This document shows positions 1 through 15,626 of a stretch of 23,613 bases of DNA, in pieces (position 1 is the stretch's first letter; every line of letters begins with the position of its first letter). The notes beneath the pieces were generated by a model. The model did no database searches and was not told the DNA's origin. It was given only the letters and a program-made list of their open reading frames with translations. The stretch is from a virus (lineage: Duplodnaviria; Heunggongvirae; Uroviricota; Caudoviricetes). The position numbers and the translations under genes are program-made. Location: the IMG/VR virus record IMGVR_UViG_2617270938_000001, one strand, 5' to 3'.

Positions 1-119
1 CAGTGTGGTACATGGATATCGATACCACGGCTAAGTACAAATCTGGTGTTACTACCGTAAAAGACTCGGTACGACTGGATCCGTGGGTGTTTATGTTCTC
101 CGCAGGATATCGTTTTTAA
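1..119 (+). CDS. 3' end of host gene for a beta-barrel outer-membrane protein (partial; enters from upstream of the window)
   Basis: Frame 3 is open from base 3 to TAA at 117-119, ending ...DPWVFMFSAGYRF, an aromatic-X-aromatic C-terminus typical of OMP beta-barrels. Lies just outside the int-proximal att region. Confidence 0.45.
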   Translation, partial: VWYMDIDTTAKYKSGVTTVKDSVRLDPWVFMFSAGYRF

Positions 120-123
120 TTTT

Positions 124-177
124 CTCTGCAAAACCTCTGCAAAACCCCTCTGCAAAACTGGTCATCAAATGACCAGT
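124..177. repeat. attL-proximal repeats: three tandem copies of CTCTGCAAAAC (124-134, 135-145, 148-158) followed by inverted repeat CTGGTCAT-caa-ATGACCAG (159-177)
   Basis: Read directly from the sequence. Located between the host gene stop and the int stop, where an attL core or integrase binding sites are expected; the inverted repeat overlaps the last int codons. Confidence 0.5.
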
Positions 178-1295
178 TTTTTCCATTCCTTACCGCGTGC
201 GTCGTTGTAAATATCGGTCATTTTTTGATTCGAATGGCCCAGCAAAATTTTGGTATCAACCCCCTGCTCTCTGAACAATCGCTCTGATAAAGATCTCTGC
301 TCATGGAAAGAGGGTGGGGTGCCATTAGCACGCCAGTTGTAATCCACAGAATCCCGGGCTTTTTTAAATGCAACGGTTAATGTTGCTGGCTTAACCATCC
401 CGCCGCGCTTAGCTGTCCCTTTCGCGTGATGGTGGTGCAATAGCCACGGACTAAGAACGCAATCGCGGCAGGATGACACCACATCATCTAGGGTGAGATT
501 TAATTTATCGCAACGCAGAGCCAGAGGGATGGCAATCCGGGTTCCTGTTTTTTGCTGTTCGACATGAAGATAACCATCCCGGATATCCGAAAATTGCATT
601 TTGCAAATATCTGAAAGGCGCTGGCCTGTCATCAGTGCCAGCAGCATACCGCGCTGTAAAAAGTAACCATCCTTTTCCGCTGCGTTATAAATCATCATCC
701 ACTCATCAAAAGTCAGTCGCTGTCTTGATATCCGCACCTGCGGTTTTTTTGCCGATTCTGCAGGGTTAAAGCCTGGCGGGACATCGCCCGTTTGCTGAGC
801 TTCCCGGAAAACATCGATCAGTACCTTCCTGAAAATTTGTCCCATTCTGTTATGTCCTCTGGCCTTGTACTCTTCCAGTACTGATACCACATCTTTTACG
901 GTTATGGCATCTAACGGTCTGGTGCCAAAACGTTCATCAAATACCCTGAGAGGGGCCGCTTTCTGTTTCAGCGTGTTGAGTTTGATCTCGCCGTTTTCAT
1001 ATCTTTCCTGTTGAATTTTTCTGTAATTATTCAGAAAAATGGTAACGGTTGATGAACCGCCGGTATCACTAATAATTTTCTCCTGCAGACTGAGCATTTG
1101 TTCCATTTGCTGCCGGGCAAGACGGCTGTTCGCTTCTGCTGCAATAGTTTCTGCCAGTTTCTGGTCAATACTGCCGAGACCGTGATTTTTGCCTGTTATG
1201 GGATGCCTGTAACGCCAGTAAACTTTGTTATTTCTTTTGTCAAAATACGGAGATAATCCCGGAACATTGGTTTTATATTTTCGCGGGCGCGCCAT
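165..1295 (-). CDS. int: phage integrase, tyrosine recombinase (lambda Int family)
   Basis: 376-aa ORF. C-terminal region resembles lambda Int as I recall it (RLTFDEW..., GQRLSDICKM, HEQRSLSERL, LLGHSNQKMTDIYNDARGKEW), including the His/Arg and Tyr catalytic motifs. Sits next to the host junction with xis overlapping upstream. Confidence 0.9.
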   Translation of the reverse strand: MARPRKYKTNVPGLSPYFDKRNNKVYWRYRHPITGKNHGLGSIDQKLAETIAAEANSRLARQQMEQMLSLQEKIISDTGGSSTVTIFLNNYRKIQQERYENGEIKLNTLKQKAAPLRVFDERFGTRPLDAITVKDVVSVLEEYKARGHNRMGQIFRKVLIDVFREAQQTGDVPPGFNPAESAKKPQVRISRQRLTFDEWMMIYNAAEKDGYFLQRGMLLALMTGQRLSDICKMQFSDIRDGYLHVEQQKTGTRIAIPLALRCDKLNLTLDDVVSSCRDCVLSPWLLHHHHAKGTAKRGGMVKPATLTVAFKKARDSVDYNWRANGTPPSFHEQRSLSERLFREQGVDTKILLGHSNQKMTDIYNDARGKEWKKLVI

Positions 1296-1521
1296 CTTCC
1301 AGTATCCTCTTCAAAGCAGGGTGATCTGTGGCGATCACCTCCGGCTTGTTTACCATTCCGACAAAGCGAGCTTGCGGATCCACTCGCCAGCGTCTTCCAA
1401 CTTTTTTGGGGAGAGGAAATATCATTCCGGCTTTAGCGTATTTACTTAACGTACTCGGAGTTGGGACCGGTTCACTGAATTCCTCTTTTGCCCACTCAGT
1501 GAGCAGAATAAGTCTTGCCAT
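1273..1521 (-). CDS. xis: excisionase (Xis-like DNA-binding protein)
   Basis: 82-aa basic ORF whose 3' end overlaps the int start by 23 bp, the lambda xis-int arrangement. Contains the FPLPKKVGRRWRV motif similar to lambda Xis. No clear SD upstream, so the start is uncertain. Confidence 0.7.
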   Translation of the reverse strand: MARLILLTEWAKEEFSEPVPTPSTLSKYAKAGMIFPLPKKVGRRWRVDPQARFVGMVNKPEVIATDHPALKRILEDGAPAKI

Positions 1522-1585
1522 GAGCGTCGTTCGCTAATCATGGTCGCCGCCACTATAGCTGGTGGGCAACGACCGGGGTTGAACA

Positions 1586-4057
1586 TTAAAAATCAGCCTG
1601 GTTCGGGATCAGTTTTTGCCAGATAACTGAAACGTATTTTGCCTGGTAACGGGCGTCATCAAGTGCATTATGGCGCTCACCTTCGAATGGAATAGCCGTT
1701 CTGGCATCGAAGTCTATGGCTTTCCCCAGCTCAACGATTGTGCGTACATCGCGATCGTTGTAGTAACGCCACGGGCAGGGGATCCCCTGCCGTTCGTATG
1801 AACGGCGCAAAATCGTGTTGTCGAAGTTGGCTCCATTTCCCCAGACCTGAACAAAAAATTCACCGGAGTTTTCGTCGATAAATTCCCGCAATTGTAACAG
1901 TGCATCATCTAACGGGATTTCATCGGTCATAATGGCAGACTGCGCTTCACGTGATTGCTTCAGCCACCTTTTAATGACGTCACGATCAATGACTCCGCCA
2001 GCAGTTTCCAGATCGATAGTCTTACTAAATTCCGGTCCCATATCTCCGGTTTGCGGATCGAAAAATATTGCACCTATTGAGATAATCGGGGCATCAGGAT
2101 TTTTTCCCATGGTTTCAAGGTCGATCATTAGATGGTCACACGTCCTGCTGGTGGATGTGATAACGTGATGACCGTTCATCGTAATTAAGGGATCTGCCGT
2201 CTCGCCAGTTTCACTATCGCTGGCGTGATCCTGAGCGCTACCAGCATTCTCCTTGTGTGGATGTTCAGCGCCTTCCATTTCCTTCGGATCATTTTCCTGA
2301 ACTTCAACCTGATTCTCTTCATCGAATGTTTCCTGGTATGTTGCGTCACCCATCACCGCGCCACAATCAGGGCAGTTGCCGCCACCGCTTTGACCGCAGG
2401 CGGTGCAGACTTTTTCCGGTTCCTGTTGCGCTACTGGCTCAGGTTGTTTCGTTTCTGGCTCGTTTTGTTGCGTATTTGGGCTGTTTTGTTCCGCTTTCTG
2501 GTCGTTCTGTTCCGATTCTTGCTGGTTCTGGTTTACAGAATCGCGGGTTTCAATCCCCTTTACCCATTTCGGATCATTCGGGTCGCTAATCCCTGCAACA
2601 AATTCTCCGCGAGAGGCAGCAAGCAACTTATCGGCGTCAGGCTGGCTGATATTGGCTGCCTGCATAATTTTGTTTACTTCGTCAGCGGTAACTTTTACCG
2701 GCTCTGGTTGTGCGGTCGTGTCAGATGCACCAGTATTTTGTTGTGAACCTGAGTACGTGCCGTTTTTACGTGCGAAGTATTCCTCTTTTGTGATTTCCGT
2801 AGCTCCCAAGGCTAGTGCTTTTTCCAGACCAGAAAGTTTGTTTGCGCGACCGTATTTTTCGCCATCCTTGTCGGTGAAGAGGAAGTAGAACGGCCCCTCA
2901 CGCTCTACAGATGGTTCGACTTCCACTTTGCATTCGGTTTTTTCGTTGCCCGGAATTGCCGTTTCCACTGCATCAGTTTCTGGTACTGGCGACGAGAGAG
3001 TATCAGTTGCGCTCTGATTTCTTCCTTCATCTTCAAACACGCCCTTTGTAGTCAGGTATTCAGTAATGTATTTGTTCAGTGCCACAGGGTCTTTGTGAAT
3101 GTCGATCGGACGTTCACGGACAAGGCCAAAAATAGTCTGGCGGTCGTAGCGAAGGGCATCAGGCTGTTTGCGCATTGATGCCGAGATACGCTTCCAGTCT
3201 TCGCGGTCGTTGTCGATAACTTCATTTTTTGCCCAGCGATGGATGCTGCCGTCAATGTTTCCGGCATCCACATCACCAGGCCAGAGAGCGTAGGCCAGTT
3301 CGTCATCCAGTGTTTTCCATGTCTGCTTGTATTCGCGATGAATGGCAGCAATGACCGGGCTGATTTTTCCTGTTGAATTTTCACTGTGCTGTTGATTGGT
3401 TCTGGCGCGGGCGAGATCAACAACAGACGTGTATTTTCCGGTTTCCTTGCGTTCACCTTCGCGACGTTTTTTCCAGATGCGCATCTCTGCCTGAATTTCG
3501 GGCCATTTGGCACCAGGCTTACATTTATGCTTAACCCACCCGATGGCATGCAGCTTAAGCTCCGGATACATGGCGTTAACTTCTGGCATTTTCATCAACG
3601 CTTCAACGATATGTCCGTCGAATGTTGCCATGTCTTCCTGCAACAATTCCTGTGCGCTAATAACCATATCAACGGTGATGTTTTCACATGTGTCGAACTT
3701 AACCATGACAGCGTTCTGTACTTCAGGGGCCAGCTTGTCAAAAGTGACGTTCATCGGATCGGATTCAGTCTCAACCGGGACAAAGGAAGCAGACTCCTCA
3801 TCCCAGCGGTTTTCCTGCATATATTCAGCATCCCAGGAATCGAGGGCAGGGCGGGGTATACCGGGTTTATCCTCGCAGACAAGAAATTTATAAGCGCAGT
3901 CCTGAGCAGCCGGATAATGCTCCAGGAATTGCCAGTGAAATTTTGCGCGGGCGCGACGTTCATCACCGGCTTCAATGGCAGTGGCTACAGCGACGGCACC
4001 TTCTTCCTTTATTGCCTGTTCGTCCGGAATGGCGGCGCAAATAAAGACTTTACTCAT
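1586..4057 (-). CDS. exodeoxyribonuclease VIII-like protein with C-terminal DEDDh (DnaQ-like) 3'-5' exonuclease domain
   Basis: 823-aa ORF. C-terminal ~180 aa has exo motifs (MIDLETMG..., WGNGANFDNTIL, HNALDDARYQAKY). Central Cys4 ribbon CTACGQSGGGNCPDCG and a Q/E/P-rich low-complexity linker. GAGG SD upstream of the ATG at 4057. Confidence 0.8.
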   Translation of the reverse strand: MSKVFICAAIPDEQAIKEEGAVAVATAIEAGDERRARAKFHWQFLEHYPAAQDCAYKFLVCEDKPGIPRPALDSWDAEYMQENRWDEESASFVPVETESDPMNVTFDKLAPEVQNAVMVKFDTCENITVDMVISAQELLQEDMATFDGHIVEALMKMPEVNAMYPELKLHAIGWVKHKCKPGAKWPEIQAEMRIWKKRREGERKETGKYTSVVDLARARTNQQHSENSTGKISPVIAAIHREYKQTWKTLDDELAYALWPGDVDAGNIDGSIHRWAKNEVIDNDREDWKRISASMRKQPDALRYDRQTIFGLVRERPIDIHKDPVALNKYITEYLTTKGVFEDEGRNQSATDTLSSPVPETDAVETAIPGNEKTECKVEVEPSVEREGPFYFLFTDKDGEKYGRANKLSGLEKALALGATEITKEEYFARKNGTYSGSQQNTGASDTTAQPEPVKVTADEVNKIMQAANISQPDADKLLAASRGEFVAGISDPNDPKWVKGIETRDSVNQNQQESEQNDQKAEQNSPNTQQNEPETKQPEPVAQQEPEKVCTACGQSGGGNCPDCGAVMGDATYQETFDEENQVEVQENDPKEMEGAEHPHKENAGSAQDHASDSETGETADPLITMNGHHVITSTSRTCDHLMIDLETMGKNPDAPIISIGAIFFDPQTGDMGPEFSKTIDLETAGGVIDRDVIKRWLKQSREAQSAIMTDEIPLDDALLQLREFIDENSGEFFVQVWGNGANFDNTILRRSYERQGIPCPWRYYNDRDVRTIVELGKAIDFDARTAIPFEGERHNALDDARYQAKYVSVIWQKLIPNQADF

Positions 4058-15549: not shown

Positions 15550-15626
15550 CCACCATTAGCTCATCGGGATAGAGCGCCAGCCTTCGAAGCTGGTTGCGCG
15601 GGGTTCGAGTTCTCGATGGCGGTCCA
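15550..15626 (+). tRNA. tRNA-Arg (anticodon TCG)-like; candidate tRNA with imperfect stems
   Basis: D-arm GCTC-ATCGGGATA-GAGC; anticodon arm CCAGC-CTTCGAA-GCTGG; T-loop TTCGAGT; 3' CCA. One A-C mismatch in the acceptor stem and two G-T pairs in the T-stem. Confidence 0.45.

Follow-up and report, generated by a model that had tools for sequence, protein, structure and literature searches.

Prophage PPompW has its attachment core inside ompW and carries a substitute end of the gene, predicted arm-type integrase sites, and a probable bidirectional terminator

Results

The Attachment Core Lies Inside ompW

The element in the window (the whole stretch of 23,613 nt that was analysed) is the known lambdoid prophage PPompW integrated in ompW, and its crossover must lie at positions 1–28, inside the gene and ∼100–150 bases upstream of the tandem repeats and hairpin found near the end of int. 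We consider it likely that a core crossover at this place goes together with 11-mer repeats serving as arm-type sites for the integrase (Int) and with a hairpin serving as a bidirectional terminator supplied by the phage. The initial annotation had described the sequence at 120–181 accurately, and its view of this region as an attL between ompW and a prophage int is supported, but its main inference, that the core crossover is inside this ∼60-bp stretch, was wrong. Positions 120–181 are entirely phage DNA, the outer part of the P′ arm.

The evidence comes from the ompW locus with and without prophage. Between K-12, in which the site is empty, and the lysogen UTI89, identity is ∼98% up to GATACCAC. 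Past that point the two diverge strongly, become nearly identical again as far as the stop codon, and share no similarity beyond it. Comparison with a prophage-free strain had been named at the outset as the way to delimit the core, and it puts the junction inside ompW at 1–28. When attL, attR, K-12 attB, and the window are aligned, a single block, CAGTGTGGTACATGGATATCGATACCAC, is identical in all four; it is window 1–28 and the sole block identical in attL, attR, attB, and attP. This common core is found in attL (the window and prophage record L003), attR (L003, 43883–43910), attB (K-12, L001, 6541–6568), and attP (L008, 1001–1028); the attR copy, which the initial annotation had proposed to search for, thus corresponds to 1–28 and not to 120–181. 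The right flank of the core is a divergent version of the gene end in attL and the K-12 version plus the native ompW terminator in attR; the left flank of the attR core is phage DNA. Beyond the core, comparison of K-12, attR, and attP with attL reveals an imperfect duplication that extends to ∼121.

Seen from the window alone, 120–181 does resemble a boundary, as it sits between two convergent stop codons and begins where phage/host similarity ends (position 121). If the host/phage junction and the crossover were there, the ompW stop at 119 would be host sequence. There is practically no chance of this, since 122–181 has no counterpart by alignment in either attB (K-12) or attR, divergent phage-type sequence (29–78) is already present upstream of 120–181 and is found 3′ of the core in attP, and the published att (PMC8112680) equals window 1–121.

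Genome counts and published records agree with the alignments. An attR query has matches in 4,736 of 5,426 complete Escherichia coli genomes and, among the matches listed, starts exactly at the first core base in all genomes with an intact ompW. Phage record CP025907 (L008) and three IMG/VR contigs (L042, L086, and L093) contain an intact attP, in which the P arm is followed by the core, the divergent ompW tail, the 11-mers, and int. Window 1–1600 is 99.7% identical to LC567822 (PPompW_132418) and related GenBank records, and LC567822 is annotated with a 121-bp "duplication due to insertion" at both ends, the left copy of which is window 1–121. Nakamura et al. (2021, PLoS Pathog, PMC8112680) describe PPompW of STEC and EPEC with a 121-bp attL/R and report that att was confirmed by sequencing attP from excised circles. 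We place the crossover at 1–28 because the attL/attR/attB/attP alignments, the genome counts, and the published att all agree.

Within the core, GTGGTA (5–10) and TACCAC (23–28) form a 6-bp perfect inverted repeat, which we read from the sequence as putative core-type half-sites, and a central region of ∼6–8 bp between them, near 13–20, is the presumed overlap region. Core positions 1–8 read CGGTCTGG or CAGTCTGG in natural variants, and the changes at core positions 2 and 5 suggest that the crossover could be narrowed to about 6–28. Int-mediated strand exchange inside this 28-bp ompW core integrates the phage.

Some junctions depart from the usual arrangement. In O157:H7 PV15-279 (L011, 500–900), the P arm, core, phage ompW tail, and int follow one another within the chromosome, an attP-like junction of the kind that tandem or nested prophages would produce. 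In E. albertii (L012) and in IMG/VR 643886067_000001 (L084/L135), the core, ompW tail, 11-mers, and int are preceded by a left flank that is neither ompW nor a known P arm, and the L084 core has ACGGTCTGG as its left part. Possible explanations are secondary integration sites and the "attB-in-PP_3" copies reported by Nakamura et al. NZ_AP042500.1 (1897771–1897848) contains only the equivalent of window 1–78 (97.4% identity), i.e., the core and divergent phage tail with the rest missing, in a gene annotated "hypothetical protein."

The Phage Supplies the 3′ End of ompW

The plus-strand segment at 29–119 is a phage-borne substitute ompW 3′ end of 30 codons and a stop codon, which restores the frame after integration. 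It closes an OmpW-family ORF fragment (Pfam OmpW, E = 3.7e-12) with a TAA stop at 117–119. Differences from K-12 are unevenly spread, with 0 of 28 nucleotides in 1–28, 25 of 50 in 29–78, and 1 of 43 in 79–121. The same tail follows the core in the four attP records (L008, L042, L086, and L093), and the K-12–type native tail is left behind at attR. The stop codon at 119, which had been taken for that of the host, is therefore supplied by the phage. ompW stays intact because the phage brings its own last 30 ompW codons, and since the host/phage boundary is inside the gene, the OmpW C terminus is phage encoded in lysogens.

The phage tail keeps the final strand VRLDPWVFMFSAGYRF exactly, and the segment preceding it (window 29–78) is rewritten, ANYKLGGAQQHDS in K-12 versus AKYKSGVTTVKDS in the window. 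Other prophage variants (seen with L004, L005, L014, and L015) have ASYKSNGTPVKDA, or AKYKSDGRKLAKGSYSDN with a 5-codon insertion. From the barrel topology, we take the rewritten segment to be the last extracellular loop of OmpW, and integration may therefore change a surface receptor.

Three Tandem 11-mers Are Predicted Arm-Type Sites for a λ-Like Integrase

The three tandem 11-mers noted at the outset are real. Exact plus-strand copies of CTCTGCAAAAC are found in the P′ arm at 124–134, 135–145, and 148–158, with start-to-start spacings of 11 and 13. The third ends 7 nt before the int stop codon, and its last five bases belong to the outer stem of the hairpin. Tandem Repeats Finder scores the array at 52–54. 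With one mismatch allowed, the 23.6-kb window contains three copies versus 0.54 expected, all of them in the tandem array and none elsewhere. The conserved unit of the repeats is YCTGCAAAAC. Site 2 alone has a core substitution in relatives (CAGCAAAAC in L015, L106, and L116), and site 3 is invariant as TCTGCAAAAC in all six aligned lineages. In SCPM-O-B-7615 and O157:H7 Rafaela_II (L006, 1501–1696, and L007, 1501–1698), there are four copies and not three, with insertions of 11 or 13 nt.

The adjacent minus-strand int gene (165–1295, TGA stop at 165–167) encodes a 376-aa λ-type tyrosine integrase with an N-terminal arm-binding domain. Its product matches Arm-DNA-bind_1 (PF09003, E = 1.2e-21), Phage_integrase (PF00589, E = 1.3e-16), and also PF22022, and residues 14–375 align to 12–354 of the 356-residue λ Int chain (5J0N, 1Z1B, and 1Z1G) with E = 1e-55. 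The corresponding domain of λ Int recognizes five arm-type sites distributed over the P and P′ arms (PMC4880445).

A copy of the repeat is present in the P arm too. It reads TCTGCAAAAC in L008 and CCTGCAAAAC in L003, has the same orientation as the triplet, and occupies −128 to −119 from the first core base, or approximately −145 to −136 from the presumed center. In the L008 attP, the P′ copies of YCTGCAAAAC are at +125, +136, and +149. When both strands of the 44,350-bp prophage record L003 were searched, TGCAAAAC was found only four times, namely as the P′ triplet and the P-arm copy, which share one orientation. Furthermore, homology between two unrelated P-arm lineages starts exactly at the P-arm 11-mer copy. 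An IHF-like sequence, AATCAATCAGTTA, is found in the P arm at −100 to −88, with 0 or 1 mismatch to WATCAANNNNTTR in the two lineages. A scan for the IHF consensus between the core and the P′ repeats (+29 to +123, 95 bp, up to two mismatches) gave none. The P arm gave no acceptable candidate for an inverted second site of the P2 type, the matches there being weak (7–8/10), with one of them immediately next to the core.

Taken together, these features are those of a λ-type attP, in that Int has arm-binding, core-binding, and catalytic domains, a short noncore repeat occurs in both arms, and the site follows the integrase family, any change of its sequence being shared by both arms (see below). 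Judged by sequence comparison, the 11-mers are most likely arm-type sites for the λ-like integrase. The N-terminal domain of Int would bind the three P′ 11-mers, and the triplet together with the P-arm copy would let Int bridge arms and core in integrative and excisive complexes, as P1 and P′1–P′3 do in λ. The initial suggestion that the repeats are integrase or accessory-factor sites is thus well supported in its integrase part by comparison with other elements.

The accessory part of that suggestion is improbable. It would have the 11-mers bind excisionase (Xis) or another DNA-bending protein and not Int, and it draws on an excisionase gene next to int: xis (1273–1521, minus strand) encodes an 82-aa protein of the Exc family (Pfam Exc, E = 1.3e-7), called excisionase in RefSeq and xisE in LC567822. 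λ Xis, too, binds three tandem sites, X1, X1.5, and X2 (PMC4880445). However, λ Xis sites are confined to the P arm, while the motif here is found in both arms, the single P-arm 11-mer is approximately at the position of λ P1, and in prophage e14 the motif sequence has changed in both arms together.

The Three-Plus-One Layout Is Conserved in Relatives

Integrases 65–69% identical to that of the window (from Kluyvera, Raoultella, and an Enterobacteriaceae genome) are accompanied by three copies of C(T/A)GCAAAAC at the 11/13 spacing, amid variable flanks and intersite letters. In IMG/VR, a pattern scan returned 38 loci with the triplet, representing 23 distinct variants of triplet plus downstream flank, again with the 11/13 spacing unchanged and the intersite letters variable. 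For 21 of these 23, an int ORF of 374–381 aa (one truncated by the end of the locus) ends 3–21 nt past the third repeat. Among diverged integrases, 17 of 18 are 49–64% identical to the window Int in the N-terminal domain and 37–50% in the core-binding domain, their most diverged part, the exception being L119 (66 and 64%, respectively); three further contig integrases are near-identical to that of the window, one of them truncated at the N terminus. Such N-terminal conservation and core-binding divergence would be expected if arm recognition were shared and core specificity had diverged. Overall, the triplet is retained beside integrases only 45–69% identical to the window's in other genera and viral contigs.

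Prophages at icd extend this picture. Contig L116 is the attP of an icd phage, with a substitute icd end in its P′ arm and a further TCTGCAAAAC 363 nt upstream of the triplet. In e14 of E. coli K-12, whose IntE is 49% identical to the window Int, TTATCAAAA occurs at 1444, 1455, and 1468 of L137, again with 11/13 spacing and just past a phage-borne icd tail and hairpin. One more copy is in the e14 P arm, 127 nt before the core; the 18 kb searched contain no plus-strand copy besides these four. Both the three-plus-one architecture and the spacing are thus conserved, and e14 repeats the layout with a different site sequence, one that has changed in both arms together.

These comparisons also bear on a trivial origin of the array. 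Functionless tandem repeats could have arisen by replication slippage in a noncoding gap, and the three window copies are indeed identical and the copy number polymorphic (four in SCPM-O-B-7615 and Rafaela_II); slippage-prone repeats vary in copy number as these do (three or four), which counts against arm-type sites. Yet slippage would leave unexplained a 9-bp core and 11/13 spacing kept beside such distant integrases while the intersite letters vary, the additional P-arm copy, and the recurrence of the layout in e14 with another sequence, and we regard it as quite improbable.

In e14, L013, and L017, int is 1.5–3 kb off, beyond cargo genes, yet the repeats keep their place next to att, which ties them to recombination and not to int expression. 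In Kluyvera georgiana (L013, 4082–4125) and Enterobacter bugandensis (L017, 4082–4124), the repeat-plus-hairpin module is ∼1.5 kb past the int stop, with a gene between, and int has a different C terminus, KEWKKIII. The coding arm of the hairpin would read KLVT and a stop there, reminiscent of the KLVI end of the window Int, and may be an older int 3′ remnant. A test of covariation between int and the repeats in these two lineages, where no repeats adjoin int, showed that the module has not been lost: inserted cargo has moved it by ∼1.5 kb, to the point where the locus stops.

The Hairpin Is Probably a Phage-Supplied Terminator

The inverted repeat over the end of int and the T run following it, both recorded initially, are real, and the repeat is longer than first noted: CTGGTCAT/ATGACCAG (158–165/169–176) extends to AAAACTGGTCAT/ATGACCAGTTTT (154–165/169–180). 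The resulting hairpin, at 154–182, has a perfect 12-bp stem, a CAA loop, and A4 and T6 flanks; the six T residues are T177–T182, the first four of which are also in the outer stem. The int TGA (165–167) straddles stem and loop, with one base at the end of the left arm and two at the start of the loop. Predicted folding energies are −14.4 kcal/mol for the plus strand and −14.9 kcal/mol for the minus strand, and none of 200 shuffled sequences was as stable. The hairpin starts 35 nt past the stop of the hybrid ompW, and on the minus strand it is followed by UUUUG. Its stem has only four G–C pairs, and the hairpin was not listed by a consensus terminator scan.

The hairpin is kept in all PPompW-type lineages examined, and substitutions mostly keep pairing via G–U. 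Strand preference, as judged from such wobble changes, is mixed. In E. coli 510016, L013, and L017, it is the plus strand on which the changes are G–U compatible, although good folding is retained by either strand. The L016 hairpin forms only on the int-sense (minus) strand, by means of three G–U pairs (−10.7 versus −0.8 kcal/mol); in this locus, the gene upstream is provided with a terminator of its own.

We conclude that the hairpin is probably a bidirectional intrinsic terminator that the phage supplies for the hybrid ompW on the plus strand and for int on the minus strand. The hybrid gene needs a new terminator because the native one stays at attR after integration, and without it the hybrid transcript would run antisense into int. 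The hairpin would stop the transcript before this happens and would also end that of int. An early proposal of a reconstituted terminator for the host gene therefore survives for the hairpin and not for the 11-mers, and the terminator would be provided by the phage rather than assembled from host and phage halves.

The L016 hairpin, folding on the int-sense strand only, indicates selection on RNA for the hairpin itself. It could be extended to the notion that repeats and hairpin together act as RNA, for example as an ompW 3′ untranslated region element or a stabilizer or processing site of int mRNA, and have no part in recombination. This is very improbable, since an Rfam scan of window 1–1700 (both strands, E up to 1) gave no match, the repeats of e14, L013, and L017 remain with the att end despite the distance to int, and the P-arm copy is outside the 3′ ends of the ompW and int transcripts. 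The repeats as arm-type sites and the hairpin as a terminator remain our preferred assignments.

The position of the hairpin differs between groups: in e14 (L137, 1374–1480) and L116 (−80 to 0 from the triplet), a G+C-rich hairpin comes before the repeats, right after the icd stop, and in PPompW the hairpin comes after the repeats.

Discussion

The PPompW element and its 121-bp att are already published. In the passages of Nakamura et al. (2021, PMC8112680) that were consulted, we found no description of the 11-mers, the hairpin, or arm-type sites, and neither the arm-type assignment nor the three-plus-one layout was found in the literature searched. Otherwise, the module is conventional, an ordinary λ-style integration module. 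A query with window 1–185 has matches in 1,731 of 5,426 complete E. coli genomes, nearly all lysogens with int adjacent, and carriers of this junction include O157:H7, O145, O111, and UTI89. The prophage-junction map is therefore corrected for approximately one third of complete E. coli genomes, and the candidate arm-type site set for the e14/PPompW integrase family could aid att prediction in related prophages and the use of integrases as tools. Elsewhere in the element, the window has a single tRNA-Arg gene (anticodon tcg, 15550–15626) at the place where PPompW_132418 has three tRNA genes (Met, Lys, and Arg).

A bolder idea, which we find possible but rather doubtful, is that the integrases of PPompW, e14, and icd phages build an intasome whose geometry is unlike that of λ and that integration doubles as lysogenic conversion of the outer-membrane receptor OmpW, the latter because the phage tail rewrites what should be its last surface loop. 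If true, the three P′ sites would be used from beyond a translated gene tail, 110–270 bp from the crossover and with no recognizable IHF site between, and the single P-arm site would be fixed at about −125.

Comparison with λ reveals both likenesses and differences. The λ arm-type consensus is C/AAGTCACTAT, and three matches to it are found at 286–316 of L018, ∼10 bp apart, the last overlapping the int stop (313–315). These matches, at 27785–27815, do not coincide with the λ GenBank feature "int 4" (27814–27854), and the λ positions given here rest on the sequence and on the consensus, not on that feature. As in λ, PPompW has a heterobivalent Int with an N-terminal arm-binding domain, and the int stop adjoins three tandem sites spaced by approximately one helical turn. 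The single P-arm copy occupies nearly the position of λ P1, which has the same orientation and lies at −143 to −134 from the overlap center. Unlike in λ, the PPompW site sequence is YCTGCAAAAC, and the core is inside a protein-coding gene. The P′ sites are at about +108 to +142 from the presumed center in PPompW and at approximately +234 in e14, compared with +53 to +84 in λ; those of PPompW are ∼55 bp farther out than in λ because the translated gene tail intervenes, and the geometry may differ therefore. Moreover, one P-arm copy was found in PPompW versus two in λ, and neither an H′-like IHF site nor an inverted P2-like site was detected in the scans described above. The greater distance of the P′ sites from the core, the missing P′ IHF-like site, the single P-arm copy, and the variation between three and four P′ repeats among strains lower our confidence in a strictly λ-like geometry, but they do not affect the location of the crossover.

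The closest parallel is with phages that integrate at icd. Prophage e14 and phage 21 insert in the 3′ end of this protein gene and carry a replacement for it. e14 differs from PPompW in its target (icd versus ompW), in its site (TTATCAAAAC), in the distance of the repeats from the core (∼234 bp), and in having three cargo genes between the repeats and int. In other respects, PPompW resembles e14 and the icd phages of the phage 21 type: their integrases are homologous (49% identity for e14 IntE), both target the 3′ end of a protein gene and bring a substitute tail, both have three direct repeats at 11/13 after the tail and one P-arm copy 125–130 nt before the core, and both supply a hairpin after the substitute stop codon.
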